Notes: generated by a model not told the origin, from the sequence alone. A stretch of 64,000 nucleotides of DNA from a virus (IMGVR_UViG_3300042090_002000:13725-77724), one strand, 5' to 3'; shown: positions 3,427 to 45,684, numbered from the stretch's first letter. Made by a program: numbers and translations.

Positions 3427-3736
3427 AAGACACCTATAAAATAGATGGTATCATACCCCACTATGAGAAAGCAAGAACTCGTTTCTGACTTTTGCTACTA
3501 TAAGTAGGATAGGTGACGGGCATGGACACTACCGCTTGGCCCAAAGTTTGCCCCGGATGTCTGTCAAAACACGAAGACATTCGAGGGATGATTTATGCTG
3601 ACGGTACTGCTGTTGGTGCTCGTTGTGAAAATGCTTGGCATAAAGGTCCCGGGTATGTGCCGGAAACGCTGAATCTGACAGACGACGACCGCGTATTCTT
3701 GCGGCAGAATCGGATTCGATCTTATTAAGGTGATTT

Positions 3737-4072
3737 ATGATTTCCCCGCAACAGATCGAAACAGTGCAGTGGGTGGACACCGCGATTCGCATTATTGGCT
3801 GGCCGACAGTTTTAGGTATCGTGGTGTGGGTTGTGCGTAAGTGGGACGCCGGGCAGCGCGAATTGAAAGAGTTGCACGTCAATGGCCGGGTGGCGGTCGA
3901 GACGATGAATTTGGTCAAGGCCGAAGTCGATACGATCAAGAATAACCACCTCGCACATCTTCAGACAGGCATCGAGCAGTTGGCGGGTAGTAACGACAAG
4001 GCCGTCGAAGTGCTCCAAGACATCAAAGCCGGAATCGGAATCCTAGTTGATCGCACCCCGCGAAAAGGTTAA
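3737..4072 (+). CDS. Holin-like membrane protein
   Basis: One N-terminal TM helix followed by a coiled coil. Lies downstream of a late-type promoter motif. Confidence 0.45.
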   Translation: MISPQQIETVQWVDTAIRIIGWPTVLGIVVWVVRKWDAGQRELKELHVNGRVAVETMNLVKAEVDTIKNNHLAHLQTGIEQLAGSNDKAVEVLQDIKAGIGILVDRTPRKG

Positions 4073-5457
4073 CTGAGTCGCAGACCCCAGAATTTTCGGT
4101 CAAGCATCGGCACGTTCGAAAGCCGCTTCACGCAAGAGGGATCGGCAGTCACGATAAATTTCTTGCCCGTGGGGAAACTTACTTCGATTGTCAGTTCATC
4201 AGTGCTGGCGTTCATCTTTGTCACAGTCCCGCAATAACGAGCAGCAGGCCCAGTAAGAATTTCCACGAAATCTTGCAGATGCACTACTGGAAGTGGAGGG
4301 GCGTTAGATTTTTTCATCATTTCCTGAATGTCTGCGTGCGGCACAGTTACGGCCTGCACGAAATTCCCTTCGCCGTCGCAGAGAGATGCGATCTCAGAAA
4401 TACCGCGTACGCGGAGCAGTCCACGTACAAGCGGTTGGCGCGAACAACGGGCAAAGATGTAGCCGAATGCGAGTTCGCCATCGTCGGTGACCGGTGCGAA
4501 TATCTGCGCGGGATTTTTGCGGAATAGCTTCTTACCTTGATCGCGCAGAGCCGGGGCGATCTGCAGCATTCTGTGGTCTGATGAAATTTCCAGCATGCAC
4601 CATGGCGTGTCTTGCAGATGACCTACAGGCCCGAACGAAAGGATCGGCGAGTTATCGGCAGGCGGCGCGTCGAAGCGGAAGACTTTGGCGCGATTCAGCC
4701 GGGCCAGATATCGCTTGCCCAGCCCCGCGCCGGTGAGTGACGCTTGGTGGGTGATGCTGCGCAGGTACGCGCCGACCGCCACAGCCTTGACATCTTTGTC
4801 CGCCAGAAGCCGCTTGATCGCGGGCCGGAAAATTTTGCGGATCATGGGTACCGGTGTGTGGAATTTTTCCGCGACTATGGCGTAGCTGCGGGATTCGGCA
4901 TACGCGAAGATCATATCGGTTAAACTACCATGCGGGGTGGTCTCTAATTTAGCTTTGCGGAGAATAGGGCGGATAATCTCCGCATCAGGTGCGGTGCCGA
5001 TTAAGATCATAGAGCCGATGCTTTGCTCGATGATTCGGAGATTTTGCCAGACGCGGGTTTGAATGCAGCCGTGGGTTTTGCCGATGAATGTTTGAGACTT
5101 TTCGAGCAGGTAGTATTCAATGAAGAACTCCGCAAACTCTGGGCGCAGGTGAGCGAGCAGTGGCGCAAGTTTATTAGGATAGTCGTGGGCGAACGCTTTG
5201 AAGTCGATTAGGCTGCTGTTTTCGGGAAGCGCCTCCGCGCTCAACAGTGGATCAACTTCTTTACGGCGGAATGCTTCGAGGCTGGCCGCTTCGGACACAT
5301 GGGTCATATAGTCGTGAATCCCGTGCGTCCGCTCATTGTGGGCGCGGCGTTTTATCTTGCTATGGGCTCCGCAATTGAAACTGCCGCGAGCCCGGCCATA
5401 ACTGCGCCTGCCAAGATTATGCGCCAGAGTTCTCCAACCACACGATTTAATCTTCAT
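4069..5457 (-). CDS. Transcription regulator: sigma70 region-4-like HTH domain(s) fused to a NusG-family NGN+KOW domain
   Basis: Sigma4-like segment LAHLRPEFAEFFIEYYLLEKSQTFIGKTHGCIQTRVWQNL. Second HTH SRSYAIVAEKFHTPVPMIRKIF. NGN segment WCMLEI...IFAP...LAFGYIFA...LRVRGISEI. KOW segment LQDFVEILTGPAARYCGTV. Confidence 0.75.
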   Translation of the reverse strand: MKIKSCGWRTLAHNLGRRSYGRARGSFNCGAHSKIKRRAHNERTHGIHDYMTHVSEAASLEAFRRKEVDPLLSAEALPENSSLIDFKAFAHDYPNKLAPLLAHLRPEFAEFFIEYYLLEKSQTFIGKTHGCIQTRVWQNLRIIEQSIGSMILIGTAPDAEIIRPILRKAKLETTPHGSLTDMIFAYAESRSYAIVAEKFHTPVPMIRKIFRPAIKRLLADKDVKAVAVGAYLRSITHQASLTGAGLGKRYLARLNRAKVFRFDAPPADNSPILSFGPVGHLQDTPWCMLEISSDHRMLQIAPALRDQGKKLFRKNPAQIFAPVTDDGELAFGYIFARCSRQPLVRGLLRVRGISEIASLCDGEGNFVQAVTVPHADIQEMMKKSNAPPLPVVHLQDFVEILTGPAARYCGTVTKMNASTDELTIEVSFPTGKKFIVTADPSCVKRLSNVPMLDRKFWGLRLS

Positions 5458-5767
5458 GGATTTTTTTAAGCCCCCTGATGTTTTTGCGAGCGAGTCGCAG
5501 GTAGCGTCGCACTAAAATCTCAAATAGCGCGCCGTGGTTGAGTTCTGGTTCAGCAACGTGAAGCATTTCGTGGATTAATGTTTTGTCGTAACCTTTGTCG
5601 CGTTTGTTCAACACGATGATCGGTTTCGCGAACGGCACCGCATGAACAGTCATGCCGTAGTCGGTGGGAAGGGTTTCGTTGTCTACAAACTTCAACACGC
5701 CGGGTTCAGGAAGCCGGTCGTGCCAAATCAACGTGTTGACTCGTTTGTACGCCGTCGCCAGCCTCAT
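5447..5767 (-). CDS. SprT-like zinc metalloprotease
   Basis: TLIHEMLH (HExxH) plus a downstream HG..F. Confidence 0.7.
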   Translation of the reverse strand: MRLATAYKRVNTLIWHDRLPEPGVLKFVDNETLPTDYGMTVHAVPFAKPIIVLNKRDKGYDKTLIHEMLHVAEPELNHGALFEILVRRYLRLARKNIRGLKKIHED

Positions 5768-6254
5768 GGGGTGCTCCCAAAAGAAGGGTACCCCAACGAC
5801 TAGAAGTTGTCAATCTTTTTTCTCCCAGCAATCGTGAATCGTGTTGACATACCCTCGCGCGATCAGGTCGCGTTCAAGTTCCGCTATATCCATTTGGGCA
5901 TATTGCATTTGTGCGTAATACTCCCGTGAAAACAAACGCACAGGCACTGACCGCTCTGCCCAGTGGCGTTGAATCGCGTCGCGGAACTGTTTTTCGCGCA
6001 CGTTCCCGGCCCAGCCTTGTTCATCTGTCCGCTGTTCGACACGTTCGTGCCAGTCGCGCACTTTGCCGGGCAGGCCCGGCGGGAATAAAATTGAAAGAAG
6101 CCAATTCATAAAACTCTCCTCAGTCGCTTTGGCCATGACATCCTCCATGACGCGAGAATAGCAGGATTTGGTTTTGATTGCAATAGACCGCAGGTACTAG
6201 TACTGCATGGTTTTAATTAAGACTTTCGGTTACCAAATAGGGAGGATTTTTCCT

Positions 6255-6536
6255 ATGTCACACACAATCGCATTGAGTTGGACTGCAAGCACTGACGCAG
6301 TTCAAGGCTACAATGTTTATGAAGGAACCGCCGCCGGAAATGAGTCATCGACGCCGGTGAATGGAACAACACTGATCACGGGAACCACTTACACTGTGAC
6401 GGTTGCAGGGCCGGGGGTGTACAGCTTTGTGGTCAAGTCGGTCGAGAACGGTGCAGATTCCGTCAACTCGAACGAAGTGATCGCAACTGTACCTCCGTTT
6501 CCCCCAACCGGACTCACTGTGGGAGCGATTAATTAA
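6255..6536 (+). CDS. Single fibronectin type III domain virion protein
   Basis: LSWTAS...GYNVY...YSFVVKSV...SNEV...PPTGL. SD GGAGG upstream. Confidence 0.75.
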   Translation: MSHTIALSWTASTDAVQGYNVYEGTAAGNESSTPVNGTTLITGTTYTVTVAGPGVYSFVVKSVENGADSVNSNEVIATVPPFPPTGLTVGAIN

Positions 6537-6591
6537 TTCCCTATGGTCCGCGTGGTATTCAGTAACACACATGTTTTAGGGAGATGCTGCC

Positions 6592-8070: not shown

Positions 8071-8076
8071 AAAGGC

Positions 8077-8105
8077 TTGACACCTTTTCGTGGATGTAGT
8101 AGGAT
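8077..8105 (+). promoter_or_regulatory. Sigma70-type promoter for the structured RNA/tmRNA locus
   Basis: TTGACA(8077)-17 nt-TAGGAT(8100). The predicted start near 8112 coincides with the first hairpin. Confidence 0.65.
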
Positions 8106-8332: not shown

Positions 8333-8342
8333 GAAAGTTACG

Positions 8343-8682
8343 CTCGTAGAAAGGTCATGACTGCCTAAGTGGAAGGGAGTTCAACTCTCCCCCGATCCAC
8401 CCGATGAGTGATGCGCCATGGGTTTCGTGAAACCCGCCATCTGTTTGTGATCACTCATTCGGTGGGTCGGACGGGTTTCGACACATAGGTCGAGAAGTGA
8501 CGCTAGTTCGAGTCGAAGTGAACGCGACGTAATCGCGTATCAAACGATAGACGCCAAAACTAAAATGGCTAAGGTCCTTGCGTTCCCAGCAATGCGAACT
8601 GTGGCTCCGGCCCGACAGTTTGCGCTGGCTGCGTAAGAGCCGCCCGGGAGTGGCCGAAAGCTGCTCCCGGGATTTTAATTTT
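8343..8682 (+). ncRNA. ssrA: Circularly permuted (two-piece) tmRNA
   Basis: The T-arm GGGAG-TTCAACT-CTCCC and CCGATCC-A (8375-8399) precede the 5' end GGGTCGG-ACGGGTTTCGAC (8464). The acceptor stem has G3:U70 and A73. P2 helix pairings are present. The resume motif ATAGAC-GCC opens the tag AKTKMAKVLAFPAMRTVAPARQFALAA* (8553-8636). Confidence 0.92.
8643..8682 (+). terminator. Intrinsic terminator after the tmRNA coding piece
   Basis: CCCGGGAG...CTCCCGGG hairpin followed by ATTTTAATTTT. Confidence 0.7.
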
Positions 8683-18401: not shown

Positions 18402-19205
18402 TTAATTGTGATTCTCAGCTTCAATCCGCGTAAGATAAAAATGAATTCCACCTGCGCATTCTTGCCAGCGATCATTACACCATTTATCACAGGTGACCGT
18501 CTGTCCTTTGGTATAGGTTACGGATGAGTCATGTTGAGATATTCCTATGGTAGCGCCGAATACCTCTACAACGCGAACCGATTGGGCGCGGCATTTTCGG
18601 CTGGTTGCGTTAGAGCGGGGAGTTTTTGCGGAGATTAACAATTTGACAATAACATTGTTTCGGCATTTTTTCCACCCAATGATTACCCCTTCGGGCAAAA
18701 TGTTAGATTGTGCATCAGCAAGAGCGGAAATATTTTTCGCGCCGTACAGGTTCGCGCGGTTCAGGTTCGCGTCGCTCAGGTCCGCGCGGCTCAGGTTCGC
18801 GCCGATCAGGTCCGCGCCGTACAGGTTCGCGCGGTTCAGGTTCGCGTCGCTCAGGTCCGCGCGGCTCAGGTTCGCGCCGATCAGGTCCGCGCGGCTCAGG
18901 TTCGCGCCGATCAGGTCCGCGTCGCTCAGGTCCGCGCGGCTCAGGTTCGCGCCGATCAGGTCCGCGCGGCTCAGGTTCGCGCCGATCAGGTCCGCGCCGA
19001 TCAGGTTCGCGCCGTTCAGGTTCGCGTCGCTCAGGTCCGCGTCGCTCAGGTCCGCGCCGATCAGGTTCGCGCCGATCAGGTTCGCGCCGTTCAGGTTCGC
19101 GCCGTTCAGGTTCGCGCTAGATTTGATTGCTTCTATCAATAGATCTTTAATTGTGGTAACTGCCGCTGAAAAAACAATGGTTCCATAAACATTTTGTAAA
19201 TCCAT
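18402..19205 (-). CDS. Pentapeptide repeat protein with a C-terminal phage domain (DUF5758-like)
   Basis: About 25 A(N/D)Lxx repeats, then GWKKC...KCRA...ECAGGIHFYLTR.EA. Confidence 0.85.
   Translation of the reverse strand: MDLQNVYGTIVFSAAVTTIKDLLIEAIKSSANLNGANLNGANLIGANLIGADLSDADLSDANLNGANLIGADLIGANLSRADLIGANLSRADLSDADLIGANLSRADLIGANLSRADLSDANLNRANLYGADLIGANLSRADLSDANLNRANLYGAKNISALADAQSNILPEGVIIGWKKCRNNVIVKLLISAKTPRSNATSRKCRAQSVRVVEVFGATIGISQHDSSVTYTKGQTVTCDKWCNDRWQECAGGIHFYLTRIEAENHN
18738..19117. repeat. 15-bp-period tandem repeat encoding the pentapeptide repeats
   Basis: Recurring TCAGGT(T/C)CGC units every 15 nt. Confidence 0.9.
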
Positions 19206-19276
19206 TTGGTGTCCTCTTTTCTGAAACGCCGTGCGTTTCGGGAAACCCTCATAGACTGAGGGAAACCCGGAAAGCA

Positions 19277-22367: not shown

Positions 22368-23045
22368 GATTTTCGATAGTACTCGCTGGCCCAGCGCATC
22401 GCGCGGTCCGCGTTCCATAGGGGATGCCGGGCGCGCTGGGAATGTCGCGCTATCGAAGCCACGCGCCGCGCCACAGTTGGGCACACAAGGTTAATCCTCA
22501 TGCCCGCACAGACAGAGTTAGTAGAGAGCACAGGACAGGTACAGCAGATAGGTTAGGGTAAAGGGATAGGTGAATGGGTTTGTGAGTGTGGCTAGGCTGC
22601 TATTCGCAGTGCGGGCCATTTGTGGCAGGTGTTGCGAGTCTGTGGGACAGACTACCGTGCGTTTGTCGCACGGCGGACCGATAGTGCGGACTCATACCGG
22701 TATCGGTGGGATGCGCCGTGGTGCGCACGACACCACATAGCTATAGACGGGTTTGCACTGCGATAGCAGGTGCGGCGTGTAATTTTTGCGTGGTGCGGCA
22801 TGATGCGGAGTTCCACACTTTTGTGTCTAAATGATACAAAATTGTGTCTTTTTTGCCTATGAAAATCCATATATTTCCGAAATCACCTATGATTTTTCAT
22901 ATATTCTATGGTTTTTCATAGATTGCGTGGTTTGCTAAGTCTTCTATCATCATGAAACTATTACAATTCTCTTTTTTGTCGTACTTTTGTGGGAATACAT
23001 CGGCACAAACTAATAGACTTAGCGTTTCATAAACAGAGGGGATTT

Positions 23046-23372
23046 ATGAGAGCGAAATGTTTGCACACCGTTGACCGCGTTCCCGATTCCAAGGGCGCGA
23101 TGATATGCCCGCAATGTCGGAGCATTTGGCGTAGACAGCGCCGCAATCAAAAGACAGGCTTTGCGGCGATATGGGATGCCCAGCACGGCCTGTGCGCGTT
23201 CTGCGGGCTTTTGTTGGCCGACAATCGCACCACGCATCGAGACCATAATCATGTGACCGGTGCAACGCGCGGGCTTGTGCATAGTGAATGTAATCAGATG
23301 ATTGGCAGGATTGAGAATGCTGTGGCGCAAGTCGGATGGGCTCGCATCAAGGCATACATCGGGCGCGCATAG
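23046..23372 (+). CDS. Endonuclease VII-like HNH nuclease
   Basis: QHGLCAFC...HRDHNHVTGATRGLVHSECN. Confidence 0.75.
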   Translation: MRAKCLHTVDRVPDSKGAMICPQCRSIWRRQRRNQKTGFAAIWDAQHGLCAFCGLLLADNRTTHRDHNHVTGATRGLVHSECNQMIGRIENAVAQVGWARIKAYIGRA

Positions 23373-29070: not shown

Positions 29071-30669
29071 ATGAGCAAACACACTCAGTACGGCGCGGAC
29101 GCGCGAGACGCGATCCTGCGTGGCGTGGATTTCCTTGTTGACGCTGTTGCATTGACTGAAGGGCCGCGTGGAAGAAATGTCATCATGGGGCAACGCGCGT
29201 TGGGTCAAACGCCGAAAGTTTCGCGCGACGGCGTGACCGTTGCGAACTATGTCGATCCGGTTGACCCCACTGAACAGATGGGCGCTGATCTGATCCGCGA
29301 GGCTTGCCAGAAAACCGACAACGTCGTTGGCGACGGCACGACCTGCACGGCTGTTCTTGCCCGCGCTATGATTCACGCTGGCTTTGATTTGATCACCAAG
29401 GGTGCGAACCCTTTGGCCATGGAGCGCGGCATTCATAAGGCCACGGCGCTTGTGATTGACCGGCTGCGCAAGATGGCTGTAGAAGTCTCCGGGGACAAAG
29501 TCTTTCAAGTTGCCACGGTGTCTGCGCACGGGGACACGGAGATCGGATGGCTTGTCGCGGAGGCTGTTGAGAAAGCGGGCAAGGATGGAATTGTGACGGC
29601 GGAACCATCCGTGACAGCGAAGACGTTTGTTGAGAACGCGCCCGGGCTGGAGTTGGAAAAATCGAATCTGCTTTCGCCGGTGTTCATCACGCACCCAGAG
29701 GAAATGAAAGCGGAGTTGCCGAATTGTCGCATCCTGTTGTGGGAAGGTGTGATCTCGTCTGCCAAGGCGGTTGTGCCGATCTTGTCGCAAGTCAAGGCCG
29801 ATAACACCCCGCTGCTGATCATTGCCGGAGGATACGAGGCCGAAGCATTGGCGTGCATCATCAAGAACAAGGCCGCGTTGGCGCTGCCAGTGAACGCAGT
29901 GCGCATGGAAGCCTACGGTGACCGGCGCAAGGAAGTGATGCGCGATATTGCCGCGCTAGTCGGCGGCACCGCGTACACGGAAGACATGGGAATGAAAATC
30001 GAAACGGTCGATCTGAAAAAGCTGGGTGTGGCGCGCAAGGTTGTCACCACCATGGCCAAAACGCAGATCATCGACGGCAAGGGCAGCCAAGTGGAATTGG
30101 CCGGGCGCATTGCCCATATCCGTACCGCTATCGAAGCGGCGGCTCCGGCGGAGCAACCCCCGCTGAAAACGCGACTGGCGGCGCTGCTGGGCGGCATCAC
30201 GATCATCAAAGTGGGCGGCACGACCGTCACGGAGATGGAAGAGAAGCGCGACCGTGTTGTCGATGCACTATCGGCGGCGAAGGCTGCGGTTGAGTCTGGC
30301 GTGGTCGCGGGCGGTGGCACTGCCATCTTCAATGCGGCATTTGGATTGAGTGAACGTACTCCACCCGTAGCGAGCGAAGAGGGACCCGGATTTTCTGTTG
30401 TGGCCAGCGCAGGGCGCGCGGTGGTCCGGCAGATCGCAGAGAACGCGGGCGTCAACGCGAACGAGATAATCGGTACTCTTTTATCAAGTCATGAGGGGCT
30501 GGGCTACAATGCGGTGACCGGAGAATTTGAAAATTTGGTTAACGCAGGAATTATCGATCCCGTGAAAGTTGTGATCGAAGCCCTGAAGAACGCGGCAGCG
30601 GTGGCTTGCAGCATCCTCACCATGGGAGCCACGGTGAGCGAAATTAAACAGGAGAAACAAAATGGATAG
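29071..30669 (+). CDS. groL: Chaperonin GroEL (divergent, phage-encoded)
   Basis: GPRGRNV, DGVTVA, GDGTT, GDRRK, RVVDAL, GVVAGGG, GIIDPVKV. No GGM tail. Confidence 0.95.
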   Translation: MSKHTQYGADARDAILRGVDFLVDAVALTEGPRGRNVIMGQRALGQTPKVSRDGVTVANYVDPVDPTEQMGADLIREACQKTDNVVGDGTTCTAVLARAMIHAGFDLITKGANPLAMERGIHKATALVIDRLRKMAVEVSGDKVFQVATVSAHGDTEIGWLVAEAVEKAGKDGIVTAEPSVTAKTFVENAPGLELEKSNLLSPVFITHPEEMKAELPNCRILLWEGVISSAKAVVPILSQVKADNTPLLIIAGGYEAEALACIIKNKAALALPVNAVRMEAYGDRRKEVMRDIAALVGGTAYTEDMGMKIETVDLKKLGVARKVVTTMAKTQIIDGKGSQVELAGRIAHIRTAIEAAAPAEQPPLKTRLAALLGGITIIKVGGTTVTEMEEKRDRVVDALSAAKAAVESGVVAGGGTAIFNAAFGLSERTPPVASEEGPGFSVVASAGRAVVRQIAENAGVNANEIIGTLLSSHEGLGYNAVTGEFENLVNAGIIDPVKVVIEALKNAAAVACSILTMGATVSEIKQEKQNG

Positions 30670-30860
30670 GCTAGGATTCGGCGACAATAAAATTCCAAAT
30701 GTTCGCCCCGGGCAGACTGTGTACTTCTGGTCAGTTTTATTGCCCAGCGGCGAAGAACTACAGATAGTAACGCAGCGGCCTATTCCAACTGATGTGTGCG
30801 ATGACATCAACTCCCGCGAAATCCTTGCGGCGCAAATATATCCCCGGAGGCTAGACGCCA

Positions 30861-31142
30861 ATGTCTAAGACTCGATTAGAACCAATGGGTGATTATTTAT
30901 TGGTGACGGACAATAAGAGAACCACCACTCTGGATGGGATCGAATTGCCGGACAACGTCAGGCAACAGGAGATGTGCTTTGGATTTGTGGTGGCAGTTGG
31001 CCCGCTTTGTGGTACACTAAAACAGCAGGATCGCATCTGCTACGGACCCTACGCGGGAAAGACGGTGGCACTCGATGGATTCGAATTTAGACTTTTGCGA
31101 GAAGGTCAAGTTGAAGGGCGGCTCATCACCGCAGACGAATAG
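30861..31142 (+). CDS. groS: Co-chaperonin GroES
   Basis: LEPMGDYLLV...TTLDGIELPD...GFVVAVGP...YAG. Confidence 0.9.
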   Translation: MSKTRLEPMGDYLLVTDNKRTTTLDGIELPDNVRQQEMCFGFVVAVGPLCGTLKQQDRICYGPYAGKTVALDGFEFRLLREGQVEGRLITADE

Positions 31143-31635
31143 GTGCGCCAATCCTTTGTGTTCTAATGGGGTGGTGCCAAATAAATATCACCCAACTAGG
31201 ACAAAATATTGCACGCCTGTTTGTCGCATGCAACATCGTAATAGAGTGTTTGGACAACAGGATCGAGAAAAATGGAAACGTGATCATCCAGAAAACTACA
31301 AGGCATCCATGAGTCGGCGCAAACAAAAAGAAAAAGATGATCCAGAAACCAAATTGGTTCGGTCTCGCGCAAATCGTGATAGTAAATGCAAAAAGGCGTA
31401 TGGAATTACGCTGGAACAAAAAGAACAGCGGATTGCGGCCCAAGATTTTCGATGTGCAAATCCGGGTTGTCGTTCCACTGATCCCCATGGAAAGGGTTGG
31501 GTTTCGGATCATTCGCACAAGACAGGAAAGTTGCGCGGTGAACTTTGCAACTGCTGTAATGTGGCGCTTGGGATGGTACACGATGATCTTGTAGTTCTAG
31601 ACGGGCTGATGAGGTATTTAAGATTTTATGAATAA
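31075..31635 (+). CDS. Endonuclease VII-like HNH nuclease (start uncertain)
   Basis: YGITLEQ...DHSHKTGKLRGELCNCCNVALG. Confidence 0.8.
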   Translation: MDSNLDFCEKVKLKGGSSPQTNRCANPLCSNGVVPNKYHPTRTKYCTPVCRMQHRNRVFGQQDREKWKRDHPENYKASMSRRKQKEKDDPETKLVRSRANRDSKCKKAYGITLEQKEQRIAAQDFRCANPGCRSTDPHGKGWVSDHSHKTGKLRGELCNCCNVALGMVHDDLVVLDGLMRYLRFYE

Positions 31636-32134
31636 CGAATTGAGACGAAAGCTAACTTTGGATGAAGTTATGGAGACGCCTGAATATCGCGCGCTCACAC
31701 CCAAACAACAGCTTTTTTGTGCAACTTATATTGCCGGAGGATTGGCCACGGGGGTTTATGATCGCCTCGACGCGACGCAGAAGGCGTACGTCTGCAAAGA
31801 CGCGGAATCGGTGCGCGTGATGTCCTACGCGATGATGGGAAACATCCGGGTGATCGAAGCGTTGAATAGGCATTTCAATACAGATCCAGTCGAAGAGTTT
31901 TTGCAAGAGGTGTCCCGCGCCATTCACAATCGTCGGCTCTCTATTGCGCAGGTGCAGGCCCTGAAGATCAAGGCTGACCTATTGGGATACGCCGCAAAGC
32001 TGCCCGGCGCGACGCCTAATGTTCCGTCCGCCAGCGCCATGATGGACGCGGCCAAGAATCCGCGCAAAGCCAAGAGCAAACCTTCCGCCCGCAAACCAAC
32101 CCCCGCCAAAATCAACCACGATTACGAATTTTAA
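31628..32134 (+). CDS. Terminase small subunit
   Basis: LTPKQQLFCATY...DATQKAY, the HTH pattern of TerS. Confidence 0.65.
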   Translation: MNNELRRKLTLDEVMETPEYRALTPKQQLFCATYIAGGLATGVYDRLDATQKAYVCKDAESVRVMSYAMMGNIRVIEALNRHFNTDPVEEFLQEVSRAIHNRRLSIAQVQALKIKADLLGYAAKLPGATPNVPSASAMMDAAKNPRKAKSKPSARKPTPAKINHDYEF

Positions 32135-32167
32135 GACTTTCCTTTTCTCAAATAGGGGAGTCTTGTT

Positions 32168-32569
32168 GTGAACACATCCCATCCATATTCTAAGAAAAAA
32201 GCGAAGTATGATAAACAGTGGCGACAAAATCATAAGCCTGAGCGGATTGCTTATCGAAAAGCGTATGATCCTCTTTGGCGCACCACTGCGGCTGGTCGCT
32301 GGTCTATTTTTAGAGCCCGCGCAAAACAGCGAAAGTTGCGAGTGGGTATATCTCTAGAAGAATTTCTAGGTCTTGCGCCCGATCCCTGTTTTTATTGTGG
32401 CAGAGACCGCAGCGATACATGGGGACTGGACCGGATTGATAGTGCTGGGGAATACACGCTGAATAATGTGCGTCCATGTTGTCGAACCTGCAACTTAGCA
32501 AAAAACGATATGACTGTGGAAGAGTTTAGAACATGGGCCACTGCTTTGGCAAGACACTGGAATTTATGA
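32168..32569 (+). CDS. HNH endonuclease
   Basis: CFYCG...GLDRIDSAGEYTLNNVRPCCRTCNLAK. Confidence 0.85.
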   Translation: MNTSHPYSKKKAKYDKQWRQNHKPERIAYRKAYDPLWRTTAAGRWSIFRARAKQRKLRVGISLEEFLGLAPDPCFYCGRDRSDTWGLDRIDSAGEYTLNNVRPCCRTCNLAKNDMTVEEFRTWATALARHWNL

Positions 32570-33148
32570 CTTTTTGTTCACAAGTATGGACTTCACTATA
32601 CCCGGAACGGATATGCTGGGACAGCCGCGTCATGGGTCGATCTATGACGAGACTGGGACTCCCGAATCTGGATACGGCGAATGCGGGCCGTACCATTGTG
32701 AAGATTGCGTTCACAAGCCCGCGCCGGATGAACCTTATTGTATCCACCCGCGCGTGGTTGACGATTTTTGTATGCAGGATAAGTTGGTTATGATCGGCGG
32801 ACGACCGGCTATCAAGATCAATCTGGAGCATGGGTGCTGCCGTTTCGTACGACCCCCTGCTGAGAAATGTGAGGATCACGAACATGGCAACAATTGAAGA
32901 TTCCATCGCGCAGTTGCAATCTGAAGTGGCGGATTTGAAAGCACAGGTTGCTGAACTTCAAAATCATCTAGGTGCGCAACAGATCGGACTCGAATCCGCG
33001 CAGAATACTCTTCACGATCATGCGCAGCAAATCGCCGCGATTGCCGCGACACCAGCAGCAAAGCCAATTAATATCGTGACGAAGCCTTTGGGAGAAGTTC
33101 CTTCCCGCAGTCCGCTACAACCACTGGCGAGGTAATGTCGTGGCCGAC

Positions 33149-34440: not shown

Positions 34441-34444
34441 GCAT

Positions 34445-35746
34445 ATGGCACACGATATTCACGGTGCATTGGCGGGATTAAAGAAGCCCGGCCAAGGCCA
34501 CAAACCGAAGGGAGCCCACGGGCGCGCGGCAGTTCACGCGCTGGGGCGTACGAAGACCACGGGGAATTTTGCTAAGATCGAGAAGGCCAAAGGTAAGGGC
34601 GCGGCAATCGCGGCCTACCAAAACGCGCTAAAGGCGCACAAGGGGTAATACCATGCCGCAGTCCAATGATCCAGTTGCCAAGGCGCTGGCCGGAGCCAAG
34701 GCCACACTCGCACACGCGAACGCTACATTCCCAAGCTCAGGAGCCCCGAAAGCTGCAGCTACGCCTGCCCCAGCAGTGGCTCCAAAAAAGGCTTCGATGA
34801 GTATCGGCGAGCCCGAAAAAGGGACCGCGAACGAATTGAAATCGAAAGCTGAAATGGTCGGCAAAGCCAAGACTGCGCTGGGTGATGCTCCCAAGATGCA
34901 CAAGGGTGGCCCGGTAAAGAAAAGCGGAACCTACCAACTGCAGGCCGGGGAACACGTCCTCACCGCTCCTGAAGCCAAGACGGCCCGCAAACATGCGCTG
35001 ATGATGTCCGGTATGAAGTCGCTCGCCAAGGCCGCGAAGTAATCTTGCCCGCAAATTAAGACTTCGGTTTCCATAAGTAGGAGACTATTGGTCATGGCAA
35101 AAGATATGGGGAAGGCTCTCTCTGGGCTCTCGAAGCCCGGCAAGACAGCGTCCGCCAAGCGCGGTACCGCGACTATGACTATCGAGGCGATGCCTGCCAA
35201 ACCGAAGACTTTTACAGATACGAATCTGGATGGCCGGTCGGCTCCGGGCGCGGCTACTGGCGAACAAACCATCGCACCGAAGGCCAAACCGGGCGGATCG
35301 ATCAAACCGGAAATGAACGCGACACCGAAGATGGGCGCGGGGTTTAAGGCCGCATCTGCGATTACAAAAGCATAAGAGAGGAAATTCCCATGGTTGCCAA
35401 AGGATCACCCAAACCAGTTGTGACAGGCCGCAAAGGTAACGTCGGAGGGGTTTCTACCCCCGGGCGTCGCGGCGATCATAAAGCCGCGATGATGGCGGGT
35501 ATCAAGAATCTTGTTGCGCCGGGGCCGGGAACGGTCAAGACCGCGAAAATTTCGAACCTGTTGCGCAAAGACACGAACCCCAAAATTGATGCGGGAAATG
35601 TGAAACCTGCGACCGGCACTTCGAAGCCTGCCGCTGGATCACCAAAAGATTTATCGCGTGGCTCTGGCCATGCTGGCGTCCATATGGGCGTAGGGACCGA
35701 TCCTGCCACGAAACGGGATTCCGCGAGCGTCGCGAAGCCGAACTAA
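34445..35746 (+). other. Cluster of four small Lys/Ala/Pro/Gly-rich basic ORFs (34445-34648, 34653-35042, 35088-35375, 35390-35746)
   Basis: Low-complexity basic composition, tightly packed in the late region. Confidence 0.6.
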
Positions 35747-38387: not shown

Positions 38388-38693
38388 TCATGGCTGCAAC
38401 ACACACGTATGATGTCACAACAGCCAGTTATGTTGGCGATGTATGCACTATTGTAGGAACGGTCGATACAATTCCGTCAACGGGGCCTATAGCTGTCACC
38501 GTTGTACTAAATTATTCAGCAGTTACGCAAGCATGGGCCATTAGCGTGGCAAACGTAGAGGCATTAGTCGGTCGGGCTATGCTGAACGCCGCAGTTGCGA
38601 ATGGGCTCCCGAATCCGAACCCACCGGCGACCGCGACGCAATTGCCGACAGGTTCATTCACGCTGTAGGGTAACAACATCGGGGAGCAGCCCC

Positions 38694-40643
38694 ATGGACA
38701 ATCCAGCAACATTCGATTTCGATTCAGACATACCGCTCATCAAAAAATACCGCGAGTCCGTAGACCTTACGAACTTCCCCAAATGCTTTCTACAGGTATT
38801 CAATGATAACTGGGATCAGAAGACCCGCGACCGTTGGTATGCGGATCGATTCAAGTGTCTGAAGTACCATCTCTATTTGGCCGGGTTCGCCGAAGAAACA
38901 AAAGACGGCGCTCCTGATCTTCCGCCGACGTACGTGCCGATCCTTGGCATGGACTTCCAGAAAAATCCTCATGAGCGTCTGTTCGCCCAGTATCTGCTGA
39001 AGCGACCCGGCGAGAACATTGTCTTGTCCGATCTCGATACGCTCACTAAGAAACGCATGATTCTGTGGCCTCGCGGTCTGTTCAAAACATCGTCGATCAT
39101 CGTCGAGATTGTGCAAGACATTCTCAACTATCCGAACATCCGTATTTGCTTTTTGACCGGCGGAGACAACTTAGCAAAGCGTCAACTCTCGCGCGTGCGC
39201 CGCGTGTTCGAACGCCCCACTAAGCGATTCAAACTATTGTTCCCTGAGTTCTGTTTGGTGAGCAGGCCGCTGAAAAAACGTGGAAAGAAAAAATCGGAAG
39301 ACGGTCTCGAAGATGTTGATGATATCGAGTACGATGATGTGACGCCGAAGTTTGGTACGGCGCACGAGTTCACTGTTCCGGCGCGGACAAACGACACTTT
39401 TGCTGAGCCGACGTTCGCGATTTCCACAGCGAAATCAGTTAAGGCCGGATCGCACTTTGACATGATCTTCATTGACGACCTTGTGAACGATCAAAACTAC
39501 CGCAGCGTCAAACTGCTGGAGAAGTGCTATCAGGACTATCTCGACATATGTCCGTTGCTGGAGCCCGCCGGATTCATGATCATCACCGGAACGCGGTATT
39601 CATTCGGCGACACGTACGAGCGGTTGCAGGAGATGGCCAAGCAGGAAGAGAAAGAGCGCGGGCGCACGATTTGGAAATTCTCTATTCGCGATTGCTGGAG
39701 CATGGGTTGCCAGAACTGCGTTCACACCGACGCGTATCATGATTACAGCATCAATGTGCTGGAGCCACCTTGCGTTGACCTGAATTGCAAGTGCCCGGGG
39801 TTTAAGGCGCGTGGAGATAAGGGCGTGCTGTTCCCGATGACCCGCACGCATGATGGACGTGAGATCGGGCACACTGTAGAATTCCTTGAGAATGCTCGAC
39901 TGCAGTTGGGCGCGGAGTTTTTCGCGAACCAATATGAGAACAAACCAATCGCGACAGGCACCCAGACGTTCACAGAGGCGTTGCTGGGGAGACAAACGCT
40001 GCACCATGATGAGCAGTTGCCCACTTTTCATCAGGCGCGAACCTACGTCATCGGTGATCTGGCGTACGTGGGGCAGGAAGGGCGCGACTACTCCGTCATT
40101 TTCATTGTCCGCGTGTTCCAAGGGCAGATTTTTGTGGTCGATTGTTTCTTCGGGAACTGGGATTCGAACGCGGTCGCCGAAAATACGTTCCGAATTTTAA
40201 TGAAACACCGCCCGGAGAAACTTTTTTACGAAAAATTCAATGGTTGGGAGGCATACAACAACGTCATCACGGCCTACTGCAAGGAAAAAGGGCTTGATTC
40301 TGTGCCGCTGGAGTGGCTGAAAGGCTCGCAAGCGAACAACGCGAAGCTGATTCGGATTGGGGCCGCGAAGGGACCGCTGCAGCAACGGCGGCTTTGGTTG
40401 TTTGCCCTCATGCCGGGGTACTCAATCCTGTCAAACCAGCTTATTAAGTGGCCAAAGTTGGGGCGACACGATGATTTTGCGGACTGTCTGGGCATGGTGG
40501 TGGCCGCGCCAACGGGATACGAACAACAAAACCCACCGCAGATAGAAAATCCTCTGCATTGGCTCAATAGGTTACACCAAGTCCAGCCCCTTGACGACTC
40601 CTACGGAGATTCTGGCTGCGGCACGGGCATCAATTGCGGGTAG
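38694..40643 (+). CDS. Terminase large subunit
   Basis: Walker A-like WPRGLFKTS, Walker B FDMIFIDD, coupling motif GTRY, nuclease acids GDLA...DYS and HDDFAD. Confidence 0.9.
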   Translation: MDNPATFDFDSDIPLIKKYRESVDLTNFPKCFLQVFNDNWDQKTRDRWYADRFKCLKYHLYLAGFAEETKDGAPDLPPTYVPILGMDFQKNPHERLFAQYLLKRPGENIVLSDLDTLTKKRMILWPRGLFKTSSIIVEIVQDILNYPNIRICFLTGGDNLAKRQLSRVRRVFERPTKRFKLLFPEFCLVSRPLKKRGKKKSEDGLEDVDDIEYDDVTPKFGTAHEFTVPARTNDTFAEPTFAISTAKSVKAGSHFDMIFIDDLVNDQNYRSVKLLEKCYQDYLDICPLLEPAGFMIITGTRYSFGDTYERLQEMAKQEEKERGRTIWKFSIRDCWSMGCQNCVHTDAYHDYSINVLEPPCVDLNCKCPGFKARGDKGVLFPMTRTHDGREIGHTVEFLENARLQLGAEFFANQYENKPIATGTQTFTEALLGRQTLHHDEQLPTFHQARTYVIGDLAYVGQEGRDYSVIFIVRVFQGQIFVVDCFFGNWDSNAVAENTFRILMKHRPEKLFYEKFNGWEAYNNVITAYCKEKGLDSVPLEWLKGSQANNAKLIRIGAAKGPLQQRRLWLFALMPGYSILSNQLIKWPKLGRHDDFADCLGMVVAAPTGYEQQNPPQIENPLHWLNRLHQVQPLDDSYGDSGCGTGINCG

Positions 40644-40696
40644 TCCAGTTTTAAGTTCAACTTTAAGACTTCTTTCATCATAAGTAGAGGTGTACG

Positions 40697-41215
40697 ATGG
40701 CGTCTTTTTACGCATATCTATGGCTCCGTGAAGATCGGACGCCTTACTATGCGGGCAAAGGATGCGGCAATCGTGCGTTTATCAAAGGAATTGGACACCG
40801 GCAGTACCCGCCGGAGGATCGTTCCCGTATTCTCATATTTCCGACTGTATCTGAGGCCGCCGCATTTGCATTAGAGCGCGCGCTGATTCGCTTTTTTGGT
40901 CGTAAAGATCGGTCTGCCGGATGTTTACGCAACGTCACGAACGGTGGTGAGGGGATTAGCGGTTACAAGCATCGCCCAGAAGCGCGCATGCGCATGGCGC
41001 AGTCCCGCATCGGCAATACATGCGGCGTCGGGTCGGTGCGATCCGACGAGTTTAAACAAAATCTTTCCGCGCTGCATCAAGGGCGCAAATGGTCGGCGGA
41101 CGCGATTGCAAAAAGAGTGGCTACACGCCGCGCAAGAGGCGGTTTTGCCTTATCCGCTGAATCACGAGCGAAGGAATCGCTTACGAAATTTCTGAAAACG
41201 GTTGCGTGGGGATAA
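40697..41215 (+). CDS. GIY-YIG-like/NUMOD3 homing endonuclease
   Basis: FYAYL...PYYAGKG...E..LI...LRNVTNGGEG.SGYKH. Confidence 0.75.
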   Translation: MASFYAYLWLREDRTPYYAGKGCGNRAFIKGIGHRQYPPEDRSRILIFPTVSEAAAFALERALIRFFGRKDRSAGCLRNVTNGGEGISGYKHRPEARMRMAQSRIGNTCGVGSVRSDEFKQNLSALHQGRKWSADAIAKRVATRRARGGFALSAESRAKESLTKFLKTVAWG

Positions 41216-41216
41216 T

Positions 41217-43451
41217 ATGGCTGACGGGAACAACTCCGATATCAAAAAAACCACCCATTTTGAAAACATGGGACAGATGTCAATTCAAGAACTCCCCGGA
41301 GCCGTGCCTTACGGAGAGACTGCACTTCCGATTGGACAAACAGAGGTCGCTTTTGAGGATCAAAGCCGGTCAGATTTAAGCCTTATGAAAGAGGCAAATC
41401 TGAACCGCGAGGAATCAGAGAGTTTCATCGCCACTCGCGGGTTGATCGGACGTTGGAACACTGCCGAATTGATGTTGCGGGCATGGGTGGAGCCGGTTAA
41501 GTGGAAGGGTAGCGAGCAGTTCCGATCTCATCTTGGAATTCCTCTCGTCGCGGAGCAATTTTACAGCATTCACAGCGTTGTGAACCAGACTTTGTTCGGG
41601 GGATACAAAATTTTTCAGGTCGACCCGACTTCTGGCACCGATATAAAGTGTGCCGAAGCGCAACAGGCGATTTTGAACGCACAGTTGAAGACGTGCGGTT
41701 ACAAAGGCGTGTCCGCGAAGACGGAATTCCGCGAGATCACATACGACGGACTTTTTTACGGCTTCGGTGTTGCCCATTACGGTTGGACGAAGATCAAAAA
41801 GACCACGATTAAGCGCGTGCAGAAGATGCACATGCAGACAATCTCTGTTAACGGAAATTTGGTGCAGATTCCGGTCGCTGAAGACGAAGATGATATCGAG
41901 GAAGTGCCCCACATCGTTGAAATCAATCAACCGAAACTCGAACATGTGCCGATTCGCCGCGCGCGTTACGCGCCGGACCTTCGCCGGGCTGATCCGCGCG
42001 TTGCGGAGTGGTTCGGACGCATAATTTATTGCACTGGATACGATCTCGATGCGTTGCGGAACACCGCTGGATGGAAAATTCCGTCACGCGAGGATTTGGT
42101 GAAGATCACCACGCCGCAAATGCAGTCACAGTCGGCGACGAACCCACTGGAGACGATGGGATCGAACACAGGCAACCCAATTTTTCAGCAAACTACTACG
42201 CCGCAGAAGGCGTATCCTGAAAATTACACTGAACGCACACAGCACGATCCGCTGGGCCGCAAATTCGAACTATTCGATTACTGGACCGGCTTCAGGCATG
42301 TGATCGTGCTCAATAAAGAATACCCGATTCTGAACGAGACGCACAAATTCGGGCGTCCGCCGTTTTTGGGCTTCGCTTTTCGCAGCGCGCCCGACTCCGC
42401 GCATGGTTACGGCATCGCATACTGGCTGACAGACTTCCAGCGCGTGTGCCAAGGCATCATCAACGCTTATTTCGACGATTTGAACTTGAATTTGATGGGG
42501 ACTTACACATCACCCGCTGGGACAAACAACACGGCGCAGGCGCAGTGGATTTTCCCGGGAAAAGTCTTCAAAAACGACGGCGCGAACAAGGTCGAAGCCC
42601 TTACCCGCAATTCGATTGATGCGAAAGAGCCGTTGACGATCATCGGGCAGATAAAAGCATGGGCTTCCATGATCAGTGGCGCAGGCCCGGGCACTTTGGG
42701 CTCGAATCCCGGCGCGGCTGGGGATATGCGCACTCCCGGTGGCGTCGAAGCGATTACCGGTGGCGAAAACACCAAGCTATCTGATTTGATCGACGTAATT
42801 TCGGAACAAGTGTTCGTTCCGTTCCTCGAATTCTGCATCGACGAGAATCAGAAGCTGAAGCCGTCGCAAATTCGCTCGATGCTTTCCGAAGCGTTGGGAG
42901 ATGCGTTCAAAGCGACGCCGCTGGACATCATCAACGGCCAATACAAGGTGGATATTTCCGCCGGAGCGAAACTCGCGGCGCGCGAAAACATCAACAAGTT
43001 GCTGATGCTGCTGTCGTCTATTTTGCAGTCACCCAATACCGTGGAAGCCCTCGCGGTGCAGGCCATGAAGATTGATTTCAACGCGATGTACTCCGCGATG
43101 TGCGATTCGTTCAACATTCCGTACCGCGAACAAATTTTCGTGGCACAGAACGACGAAGATAAGGCTCGCGCAGCGGCGGAGACACAACAGGCCGCAATGC
43201 AGGGCAAGGCCGGGATCGTGCAATTGCAGGGTCAAGTGAAAAAGGATATCGACAACAACCAGTCTGAAAATCGTATGCTATTGGAGACTGGCAAACATAC
43301 GTTGAAAGAGCAGGGCAAGGGATCGGACCAGCAAAACGATTTGGAACTGCAGCGCGAGAAGGCCGCAGCCCAAACGCCGGTGGCGCAGGGATTGGACCGC
43401 GCGACCAAAGGTGAGTTTGCCTCCCTTGACAAGACGGCGTTCGGACAATAA
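41217..43451 (+). CDS. Portal protein
   Basis: About 745 aa between TerL and scaffold/capsid. YGFGVAH, FELFDYW, PFLGF and HGYGI motifs, with a Gln-rich C-terminal helix. Confidence 0.8.
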   Translation: MADGNNSDIKKTTHFENMGQMSIQELPGAVPYGETALPIGQTEVAFEDQSRSDLSLMKEANLNREESESFIATRGLIGRWNTAELMLRAWVEPVKWKGSEQFRSHLGIPLVAEQFYSIHSVVNQTLFGGYKIFQVDPTSGTDIKCAEAQQAILNAQLKTCGYKGVSAKTEFREITYDGLFYGFGVAHYGWTKIKKTTIKRVQKMHMQTISVNGNLVQIPVAEDEDDIEEVPHIVEINQPKLEHVPIRRARYAPDLRRADPRVAEWFGRIIYCTGYDLDALRNTAGWKIPSREDLVKITTPQMQSQSATNPLETMGSNTGNPIFQQTTTPQKAYPENYTERTQHDPLGRKFELFDYWTGFRHVIVLNKEYPILNETHKFGRPPFLGFAFRSAPDSAHGYGIAYWLTDFQRVCQGIINAYFDDLNLNLMGTYTSPAGTNNTAQAQWIFPGKVFKNDGANKVEALTRNSIDAKEPLTIIGQIKAWASMISGAGPGTLGSNPGAAGDMRTPGGVEAITGGENTKLSDLIDVISEQVFVPFLEFCIDENQKLKPSQIRSMLSEALGDAFKATPLDIINGQYKVDISAGAKLAARENINKLLMLLSSILQSPNTVEALAVQAMKIDFNAMYSAMCDSFNIPYREQIFVAQNDEDKARAAAETQQAAMQGKAGIVQLQGQVKKDIDNNQSENRMLLETGKHTLKEQGKGSDQQNDLELQREKAAAQTPVAQGLDRATKGEFASLDKTAFGQ

Positions 43452-43475
43452 GAAAAAGTAGGGTAATTTTTCTTA

Positions 43476-43868: not shown

Positions 43869-43870
43869 GT

Positions 43871-44341
43871 ATGTCCAGCAATCCAATTCCGGTCGAGCCG
43901 GAACGCGCACCATTTGTTCCTACGACTACCCCCGCGATTGATCGTGCAAATCGTTTGATGGGCCTTCGGTCTCACCCGGGGTACATGGACCTTGTCCGCA
44001 TCATCAATGAGATTGTGCAAGACTCCGTTGATGCCACGTCGGACTATCCCGGCTGGGATTCCCAGATCATTGTCATTTTGAAAGTAAAACAACAGGCGGC
44101 TAAGGAATTCCCAATAGCTTTGGCGAAGCGAATCAACCAAGCGATTGAGGAAGGAATTAGCGACGCGCGTACGCAGGCCGAAGCCCAGATTAATCCACCC
44201 AAGTCTGCCGAAGACGCGGTTGATCAAGGTGACTTCGTGCGCCAGCGCGTGCTTCAGAATTTCGAAGAAATGGAGTCGCGGATCGCCGGGTCTTATGAGG
44301 CGAAGCCGGACGATCCCAATCCATACAGCTTCGAACAGTAG
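43871..44341 (+). CDS. Hypothetical head-module protein
   Basis: SD GAGGAG. Small helical ORF between portal and scaffold. Confidence 0.55.
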   Translation: MSSNPIPVEPERAPFVPTTTPAIDRANRLMGLRSHPGYMDLVRIINEIVQDSVDATSDYPGWDSQIIVILKVKQQAAKEFPIALAKRINQAIEEGISDARTQAEAQINPPKSAEDAVDQGDFVRQRVLQNFEEMESRIAGSYEAKPDDPNPYSFEQ

Positions 44342-44416
44342 CTGCTGACATCTTATTACATGTTTTTGACTTCCTGTTTCATAAGTGTATGTTGATTTTG
44401 AATTGAGGAGCATTCG

Positions 44417-45499
44417 ATGAGCACAACTCCGGCACCACTCAACGTTGAGATGAACGAAGAACTGCTGAAAGCGATCAATGCGTCGCTGGACCCAGAGCAG
44501 TTGAAGTCTTCTATTTTGGCTGAAGCCCAGAAACAGCTTGCCGCCAATGAAGCCGCCAACGCAACCCACAAAGCGGAGCAGGAAGCTGCTGCCGCCCGAT
44601 TGGCTGAAGCCCAGCGCGCGGCGGCTGCAGAACCCACGCAGTTCAGCCACACAGAGAATATCGCGGGCAAGGATTTTATCTTTACCGGTGCATCGCAGGC
44701 TGAGATCGACTCGCAAGTCGCTGCGGCCTATCGCGTGGCTTTTGCGATTCAGCAACCCACAGAGCAGGCTGAACCAACCGTTGACCCTGCGGTCGCGGCT
44801 GCTGCTGCGGAAGCTGAAGCTGCCGCAAAGATTGCGCTGCAGGAACAGTTCAGGAACGGTACCATCTCCGCCGAAGAGTACCTTGAAAAATCAGGCGCGA
44901 TCAACAACTATCTCGAAAGACAGGGGCTTTCCGTCGAAACCCTCAAAGCCACTGTCGAGCATTCGCAACTGGACCCATGGGTTCACGCCACCGATCAGTT
45001 CCTGCAAGGCGCTGGTGCGGACTGGCCGGGCGGTGACAAGAATCGCGAAATCTTGGGCCTGCGCATTCAGGCACTGGGGCTTGTCGACGCCGAAGACAAA
45101 GTTGCTGCCATGTCGCAAGCGTGGAATGACATGAAGCGTGACAAGATGTATTTCCCGGCAGGACACCCGCTGGCTGCTGCAGCGGCTCCTGAAGTCGTGA
45201 CTGATTCTGCCGCTGCTCCTGTTGTTCCGCCTGCTGCGGTTCCGGCCCCGGTTGTTCCGACGGCTCCGCCAGCGCCCCCGGCACCGCCCGCTCGCGCCGC
45301 CGCATCGTCGTCTTCGCTCTTTGATCGAAGCACCGGCGTCGCTGATTTCGTCGCGCAACCAGACAAAGCCAAACCGGCAGAGTTTGTCGTGCCCGATAGC
45401 GCCACGCCCCAGCAAATCATGGATGCGTACAAAAAGTTTCAAGTTGCAAACGGCCTCGATCCAAACTCTGCGTTCATGCAGCAATATCGCGGCAAGTAA
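44417..45499 (+). CDS. Capsid scaffolding protein
   Basis: Ala/Glu-rich helical protein with a Pro-rich linker, located just before the capsid gene. Confidence 0.6.
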   Translation: MSTTPAPLNVEMNEELLKAINASLDPEQLKSSILAEAQKQLAANEAANATHKAEQEAAAARLAEAQRAAAAEPTQFSHTENIAGKDFIFTGASQAEIDSQVAAAYRVAFAIQQPTEQAEPTVDPAVAAAAAEAEAAAKIALQEQFRNGTISAEEYLEKSGAINNYLERQGLSVETLKATVEHSQLDPWVHATDQFLQGAGADWPGGDKNREILGLRIQALGLVDAEDKVAAMSQAWNDMKRDKMYFPAGHPLAAAAAPEVVTDSAAAPVVPPAAVPAPVVPTAPPAPPAPPARAAASSSSLFDRSTGVADFVAQPDKAKPAEFVVPDSATPQQIMDAYKKFQVANGLDPNSAFMQQYRGK

Positions 45500-45684
45500 G
45501 CCACCCCTTGGTATTTCTCTCCGTTAGGCGCGTGAAGGGGTCGTGAAATAGCGACCCCCGCGCAGCCCCTCCCAAAAAAAGTTTTTGACTAACGAATCCA
45601 TAAGTGTAGGGCATTGACGAATGCTTTGCACGGTGCGGAAGGTGCCTATCACACCTTCCAAAACCAACTCTGATAGGGGGTCTG

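Follow-up and report, generated by a model that had tools for sequence, protein, structure and literature searches.

What kind of signal, read by which polymerase, is a short bipartite motif that recurs on a single strand, at gene boundaries, throughout a phage genome? The question is raised by a 64,000-nucleotide (nt) stretch of viral DNA, hereafter the window, which corresponds to bases 13725-77724 of the linear 77,724-bp IMG/VR virus contig IMGVR_UViG_3300042090_002000 (CheckV completeness of 78%). The motif joins a GACTT or GACTA box to a second box resembling AAGTAG, separated by about one helical turn. On balance, the data suggest that it represents a phage-specific class of promoters, probably late, at which the host RNA polymerase would be redirected by a phage protein, the best candidate for this role being a fusion of sigma region 4-like, helix-turn-helix (HTH) and NusG parts encoded in the same window.

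The original prediction had listed nine copies, with GACTT at 3487, 6221, 23016, 32135, 32568, 35060, 40667 and 44368 and GACTA at 45587, each followed after 9-10 nt by AAGTAG, AAATAG, AAACAG, AAGTAT or AAGTGT, all of them on the plus strand and at gene boundaries, and every element of this description was borne out. The strict pattern GACTT-N9/10-AARTAG produced five matches, all on the plus strand, where 0.06 ± 0.24 were expected from shuffled sequences, and none of 100 shuffles reached that count. GACTT by itself was not enriched (115 observed against 106 expected), meaning that the signal resides in the bipartite arrangement. In the 13.7 kb of the contig that fall outside the window two further strong copies were found, at contig positions 4560, where the motif precedes a tail-fibre-like gene of 1625 amino acids (aa), and 10672, so that the whole contig holds 11 copies as detected by position weight matrix (PWM) or regular expression, every one on the plus strand. 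When the copies were aligned, a consensus emerged that is longer and tighter than the motif first described: about six A/T-rich bases, GACTW, seven mostly pyrimidine bases, (C/T)ATAAGT and RKAG. The A/T-rich stretch often includes the TAA stop codon of the preceding gene, and a purine run resembling a Shine-Dalgarno sequence lies directly 3' of the motif. The start codon is usually found 9-17 nt downstream of the consensus (in seven of the nine window copies, 30-35 nt from the G of GACTT), with several copies lying 87-136 nt away from the next gene.

The distribution of the motif in related phages was studied in 78 IMG/VR loci (996 kb) retrieved by alignment of capsid homologues; a scan of IMG/VR with the 360-aa scaffold-like protein alone gave no relatives. 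A relaxed pattern (GACTW, 6-8 bases, YATWDKT) occurred 92 times on the gene strand of these loci versus 3 times on the other strand, with 76 and 1 of these hits, respectively, belonging to the clade with capsid identities of 90% or more and practically none to the more distant clades, where longer-spacer look-alikes are present upstream of the capsid gene, too few for counting. Six whole genomes of the clade carry 50 copies on the gene strand versus 3 on the other (8:0, 4:1, 11:0, 8:0, 5:0 and 14:2 per genome), the expected number being 0.5-1.2 per genome for both strands together. Enrichment in related phages, on which the original prediction had made its case depend, was in this way found, and at orthologous sites. 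The six relatives of about 97 kb share almost no DNA identity with the contig studied here (G0), which aligns to two of them, G5 and G3, over only 1-3 kb of capsid and portal DNA. Still, 7 of the 14 motif-led genes of G5 have an orthologue in G0 that is also motif-led, and upstream of the capsid gene the motif is retained in most relatives while the flanks diverge freely. Such maintenance at orthologous genes amid diverging flanks is what would be expected of a functional, selected DNA signal. In G3 and G4 the downstream box appears in variant forms (CTATAGGT, TATAATT, TATTAGT), with the GACTW box and the spacing unchanged.

Transcript evidence came from contigs assembled from three wetland metatranscriptomes, belonging to three studies. 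RNA contigs begin at 32606, 19 nt after the end of the motif at 32587; at 35105, 25 nt after the 35060 copy; at 44410, 22 nt after the 44368 copy; and, for the 45587 copy, at 45616, 45619 and 45650 (9, 12 and 43 nt after) in three different runs. A DNA contig, by comparison, continues straight through the copies at 32135 and 32568. By rough arithmetic, the positions within 30 nt downstream of six motif sites amount to about 0.8% of the stretch, and 4 of the 8 contigs of run X4 among those listed begin there, which is far beyond chance. The closest starts (9-12 nt) occur at the most deeply covered site, as would be expected if contig ends were trimmed where cover is thin. The parts devoid of RNA cover (29500-32100 and 38614-40566, both covered by the DNA run) would agree with transcription beginning at the motifs but were not used as evidence. 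Taken together, the RNA contig starts provide a weak but coherent sign of transcription start at the motif.

The geometry of the motif departs from that of sigma70 promoters, as originally noted. In all strong copies GACTW lies 7 bp upstream of (C/T)ATAAG, no TTGACA-like hexamer is found 16-18 bp upstream of the would-be -10 element, and the sequence farther upstream is not conserved. Seen as a -10 hexamer, CATAAG has the A at position 2 but a G instead of T at position 6, the invariant T of the downstream box being located one base further on; two copies of G3 read TATAAT. Ordinary promoters are nevertheless present elsewhere in the genome. The replication block (window 47000-64000) has no copy of the motif and carries TTGACA-N17-TAnnnT sites, and the leftward early-type genes are served by TTGCAA-type promoters preceded by GTAC-N4-GTAC boxes. 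These palindromic boxes, found at window positions 2860, 13145, 21009, 22355 and 59518 on both strands, directly adjoin the TTGCAA/TTGACA-type -35 hexamers of early-type promoters, and each is probably an operator for a phage repressor or activator. The structural block shows no enrichment of sigma70-like sites (15 versus 13.6 in shuffles).

The genes that follow the motif can be described from left to right, all copies being on the plus strand. The copy at 3487..3507 (GACTT-N7-TATAAGTAG, PWM 22.3) leads a 68-aa open reading frame (ORF; ATG at 3522), whose orthologues in G5 and G1 are also motif-led, and a 111-aa ORF (3737-4072) with one transmembrane segment, the latter being the one basis for the "lysis" label of the original prediction. 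The copy at 6221..6240, a strict-pattern match with a spacer one base shorter (GACTT-N9-AAATAG), leads a 93-aa ORF (ATG at 6255, motif-led in G5 too) and a 492-aa ORF. At 23016..23036 a CATAAACAG variant (PWM 34.3) leads an EndoVII/HNH-like gene (23046-23372), and at 32135..32155 a weaker copy, CTCAAATAG (PWM 21.3), leads an HNH endonuclease gene (32168-32569). Within window 32130-32170 this last copy can pair with the Shine-Dalgarno sequence of the HNH gene in a 12-bp hairpin (-13.9 kcal/mol, z -4.8) that could mask the ribosome site of the endonuclease and is not common to the other copies. The copy at 32568..32587 has the shorter spacer and AAGTAT and leads a 103-aa Cys-rich ORF, again motif-led in G5. 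A consensus copy at 35060..35080 (PWM 37.6) leads a 93-aa ORF (ATG at 35094; G5 orthologue motif-led) that heads a block extending to the large terminase gene. Another consensus copy, at 40667..40687 (PWM 36.7), lies between the large terminase and portal genes, leading a homing-endonuclease-like gene (40697-41215) and then the portal gene (41202-43451), and its orthologues in G2 and G4 are motif-led. The copy at 44368..44388 (CATAAGTGT, PWM 32.9) leads the scaffold-like 360-aa gene (44417-45499; orthologues in G5 and G2 motif-led). The GACTA copy at 45587..45607 (CATAAGTGT, PWM 36.0), finally, opens the major-capsid unit.

The gene classes originally assigned to the motif, namely virion, portal, scaffold and capsid, hold in part: the remaining copies lead small virion-block genes, the scaffold-like gene at 44417 and the tail-fibre-like gene, but four copies instead precede HNH, EndoVII or homing-endonuclease genes (23046, 32168, 40697 and the 125-aa HNH ORF at 45685-46062), the portal gene being reached through the endonuclease at 40697 and the capsid gene through the HNH insert. 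As for the term "phage-specific late promoter", its first half is sustained by the strand bias, the orthologous conservation and the RNA starts downstream of the motif. Its second half is plausible from gene content, given that virion, scaffold, capsid, portal, tail-fibre and endonuclease genes stand behind the motif and that the replication block lacks it.

The capsid unit has features of its own. The 125-aa HNH gene, with a CCNHNH motif, separates the motif copy from the N4-gp56-type major capsid gene. Most relatives have the motif about 85-160 nt before the capsid gene with nothing in between, and the HNH gene looks like an endonuclease insertion into the capsid leader. The capsid gene (window 46093-47088) apparently uses ATT as its start codon in place of the ATG of relatives; from 46093 onwards the reading frame stays open, the alignment with 331-aa homologues includes the first 25 residues, GAGGAG is placed about 10 nt upstream, and RNA and DNA runs offered no alternative letter at the ATT, leaving either a rare AUU start or the ATG at 46168. 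Many relatives also share, downstream of the capsid-gene motif, a conserved leader element (~CTCCTTGAGCAAGAG; for example L003:9864-9900, L026:9861-9900 and L041:959-1000), which may stabilise the capsid message at its 5' end or regulate it.

The phage itself was recovered from the environment, the DNA and RNA runs containing the window deriving from wetland and soil metagenomes. Its gene content includes GroEL, the large terminase, the portal, a major capsid gene of the N4-gp56 family, RecA, a family-A-type DNA polymerase, a UvrD-type helicase, two tRNAs and a permuted transfer-messenger RNA (tmRNA). Complete relatives measure 96-100 kb, one of them having direct terminal repeats, and megablast found no near-identical phage records. 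The nearest cultured phages infect Tunturiibacter (Acidobacteriota), with a protein identity of only 28-30%, and the nearest relatives of the phage RecA are RecA proteins of Acidobacteriota/Terriglobia, from Acidobacteriota metagenome-assembled genomes (61-67% identity). Since both the nearest cultured phages and the RecA relatives point to Acidobacteriota, the host is probably an acidobacterium, and the virus would belong to an uncultured clade of phages of about 97 kb. The tmRNA gene is of the permuted, two-piece type (window 8342-8636; Rfam RF04321, 57 bits), and a full GroEL-type chaperonin and a bacterial-type RecA are encoded at window 29071-30669 and 54493-55497, respectively. The leftward early block also encodes, on the minus strand at window 18402-19277, a pentapeptide-repeat protein with a DUF5758 C-terminal domain, which may be a DNA mimic or an anti-defence protein.

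As to what could read the motif, no sigma region 2 (PF04542) was matched in six frames at E ≤ 1, although a highly diverged protein could be missed in this way, and sigma r4_2 had no match in the contig. The sole sigma-related match in the complete relatives was to TIGR02937 (E 3.7e-4), over its sigma-4 part (positions 77-155), and fell on one conserved protein, represented in the window by the 412-aa P0117 (4069..5307, minus strand) of a leftward early-type gene block. Three parts can be distinguished in the AlphaFold model of P0117 (predicted local distance difference test, pLDDT, 82). In VIA-align, residues 39-104 are matched by region 4 of over 20 sigma factors (Z 8.6-7.0, root-mean-square deviation 0.9-2.3 Å, 57-65 residues); this series comes from VIA-align only, Foldseek having returned nothing significant for the N-terminal domain alone. 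Residues 117-188 weakly match LuxR/GerE-type HTH domains (Z about 5). Residues 205-412 correspond to a complete NusG, with an NGN domain followed by a KOW domain (Foldseek probability 1.0 to NusG, RfaH and Spt5; VIA Z 8.8-7.2). The sigma-type matches are confined to region 4, none being to region 2, which sets the protein outside the sigma70 family. All 24 homologues share, without change, a putative recognition helix, IQTRxWQxLR, in parallel with the GACTW box, which is likewise invariant from genome to genome; 4 of these 24 homologues have weak matches to Phage_antitermQ (PF06530). Between the CATAAGT/CTATAGGT variants and the sequence of the factor, compared by identity only, no clear pattern of co-variation was seen. 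The Tunturiibacter phages Tunturi_3 (capsid 28% identical) and Tunturi_5 have no motif copies beyond chance and are uninformative regarding the link between motif and factor, because both differ in the factor. A search of the open literature for papers on the motif or the fusion protein found none. In the cultured Acidobacteriota jumbo phage Tunturi_5, the double-HTH module occurs as a stand-alone gene: the 244-aa gp346 (L091:3827-4561) is 30% identical to residues 51-203 of the fusion, and its annotation as an exonuclease is probably wrong.

The fusion protein is in our view the best candidate for the phage factor that the original prediction had postulated. In the most economical model, a one-stranded promoter of about 30 bp would serve virion, packaging and homing-endonuclease genes, and the host core polymerase would be redirected to it by the fusion; the host enzyme is invoked because the phages encode no recognisable RNA polymerase. 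The sigma-4-type HTH would read the double-stranded GACTW box, and the NGN domain would sit on the beta-prime clamp helices beside the melted (C/T)ATAAGT. NusG-type NGN domains and sigma region 2 share this binding site on the clamp helices. Tethered directly to the NGN domain, an HTH would make contact with the DNA immediately upstream of the bubble, a placement that would account for the spacing of only 7 bp, not 17, between GACTW and the downstream box. Transcripts would begin in or just after the purine run, giving very short leaders that start at or near the Shine-Dalgarno sequence, after which the fusion could remain bound to the polymerase in the manner of NusG, as a subunit for processivity or antitermination. 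In its most specific form the model casts the fusion as a true initiation factor, with the NGN domain replacing sigma region 2 and reading or holding the non-template (C/T)ATAAGT, much as RfaH does at ops, the HTH reading GACTW one helical turn upstream, and the whole acting later as antiterminator; this form is put forward tentatively, as less likely than not. The late timing, the use of the host polymerase, the fusion as reader and the exact start are what we infer from these data.

Several observations weigh against a promoter for the redirected host polymerase. The link between fusion and motif is indirect. The G at position 6 makes a reading of the downstream box by the host sigma region 2 doubtful. 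The start could directly follow the T of ATAAGT or lie 6-8 nt beyond it, and a sigma-type -10 reading seems unlikely because in most copies the start would then fall downstream of the Shine-Dalgarno sequence, leaving virion genes with leaders of 3-11 nt. A start directly after the box would retain the ribosome site in the message and resembles what is found at promoters of single-subunit polymerases, which the contiguous shape and the purine run also recall more closely. Contig ends do not define where transcription starts and may be products of processing. Clades with capsid identities of 54-85% lack the motif (0-3 hits), their contigs being 32-44% complete. Finally, an unrecognised polymerase or factor may be present among the many ORFs of these phages without known fold.

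Among the alternatives, the last point leads to the one that survives best, that is, that the motif is the promoter of an unrecognised phage RNA polymerase with the geometry of the single-subunit enzymes (T7, SP6, N4 RNAPII), in which a contiguous block ends at +1 and is followed by a purine-rich initial transcript. The conserved block is indeed contiguous, with PWM information running from position -6 relative to GACTW to the RKAG run, spans 25-30 bp and ends in TA followed by GRGAG; a start right after it would keep the Shine-Dalgarno sequence in the message, and the G3 variants CTATAGGTGA and CTATAATTGT resemble T7 or SP6 cores. The capsid is of the N4-gp56 family, and N4-like phages encode their own polymerases; the ORFs without known fold could accommodate such a protein. 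Yet PF00940 had no match in six frames of the contig and of five near-complete relatives, a result that is not proof since the control genomes gave none either, and T7-type motifs B and C were found together in no ORF, by a crude regular expression that makes this a weak negative. The 20 kb lacking from this contig encode, in G5, a primase-helicase, a PD-(D/E)XK nuclease and adaptor and tail proteins. This explanation is regarded as unlikely. A phage polymerase of multisubunit type was rejected, the DxDGD motif being present in no ORF of at least 150 aa.

The presence of a NusG paralogue fused to DNA-binding domains suggests another possibility, in which the motif would be a loading site of ops or Q type: a polymerase started upstream would pause there and the fusion would be recruited through its HTH and NGN domains, conferring resistance to terminators. 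Specialised NusG paralogues require a cis recruitment site, as RfaH does ops; the box contains GTAG, as ops does, and the weak PF06530 matches of the four homologues point in the same direction. At four sites, however, the RNA contigs do not cross the element but start on its downstream side, even if contigs cannot prove a start. Moreover, no promoter is conserved upstream at a fixed distance, only about six A/T-rich bases being shared, and the structural block lacks the excess of sigma70-like promoters that would be needed to feed such sites. A loading site is accordingly seen as improbable.

Much less probable is a signal acting at the RNA level, either as a processing site or as a translational operator by the Shine-Dalgarno sequence, with the RNA contig starts representing cleavage products. 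In its favour, most copies of the element directly adjoin the Shine-Dalgarno sequence, ACTT can pair with AAGT, and contig ends cannot separate primary from processed ends. The copies do not have an RNA fold in common, however, with z-scores mostly near zero, and the AAAT, AAAC and ATTG variants disrupt the ACTT/AAGT pairing. Several copies also lie 87-136 nt from the next gene, and an A/T-rich stretch such as that upstream of GACTW is typical of DNA-level signals. As an RNA structure proper, the motif was rejected for want of a shared fold and of a matching Rfam family. The least credible explanation denies the motif a general role in the phage and assigns it to a mobile homing-endonuclease cassette, of which it would be the promoter or the homing target. 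This view could draw on the 4 of 11 contig copies that precede HNH, EndoVII or homing-endonuclease genes and on the fact that free-standing endonuclease genes of T4-like phages often bring their own promoters, but it is countered by the location of most copies before conserved non-endonuclease genes at orthologous positions in relatives, by the capsid copy of relatives standing directly before the capsid gene with no endonuclease between, and by flanks that share no similarity.

Phage-specific promoter classes are a route by which phages reprogram the host RNA polymerase, and the solved cases (T4 MotA/AsiA and gp55/gp33, lambda Q, P23-45 gp39) each gave general insight into the polymerase. Here, a sharply defined cis element with a non-sigma70 geometry is found in an abundant, uncultured clade of soil and wetland phages, together with a candidate reader that is conserved and whose architecture is undescribed. 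If the fusion is the reader, the mechanism would be new in kind, as one non-sigma polypeptide would control both promoter choice and elongation. The motif may also be used as an annotation marker of late operons in the clade.

Reading the motif as a phage-specific promoter on the host polymerase invites comparison with phage T4, whose late promoters carry TATAAATA at -10 and are read by the host core polymerase with gp55, gp33 and the gp45 clamp. The two have in common a phage-specific late class on the host polymerase, the lack of a -35 element at 17 bp, an A/T-rich core and the use of the same signal by free-standing endonuclease genes. The likeness to the T4 late sequence claimed in the original prediction is, however, only loose, because the 8-bp TATAAATA core is replaced here by (C/T)ATAAGT, with an invariant GACTW box needed 7 bp upstream; in addition, the PF04542 search in six frames, which could miss a highly diverged protein, found no gp55-like region 2 protein. 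T4 middle promoters, where a MotA box at -30 is combined with a sigma70 -10 element and AsiA takes part in sigma appropriation, are similarly bipartite, with a box in place of the -35 element that is closer to the -10 than a normal -35 would be. The MotA box lies 11-13 bp from the -10, the gap here is 7 bp, the downstream box is not TAnnnT, and no MotA/AsiA homologue is known in these phages.

The NusG part of the candidate brings it close to RfaH, which like it has the full NGN and KOW domains and is directed to particular operons by a cis element. RfaH, however, has no domains for binding double-stranded DNA and acts on elongating polymerase in a transcribed leader, whereas the element described here is at the apparent start of the transcript and the fusion carries two HTH domains. 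With the Q proteins of lambdoid phages the fusion would share the features of a sigma-4-like DNA-binding protein that acts within the promoter, between -35 and -10, and then rides the polymerase, a parallel in line with the weak PF06530 matches. The Q promoters are nonetheless complete sigma70 promoters with a sigma-dependent pause, here the -35 element is lacking, and the fusion carries NusG itself.

The promoters of T7, SP6 and N4 RNAPII are likewise built as one contiguous block, A/T-rich at its upstream end and continuing through GACT and a TATA-like part to a purine-rich start. The GACT is here about 5 bp farther from the TATA-like part than in T7, and no cognate polymerase gene was found with PF00940, for which the control was also silent. 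Lastly, phages of the phiEco32 type share with the present clade a distant flavour of the structural module (a weak match to the SU10 adaptor) and a phage-specific promoter class on the host core polymerase. They achieve this with an ECF-like sigma factor (gp36), complete with region 2, acting at a single-element middle/late promoter, while the phages described here would rely on sigma-4-like domains only, fused to NusG.

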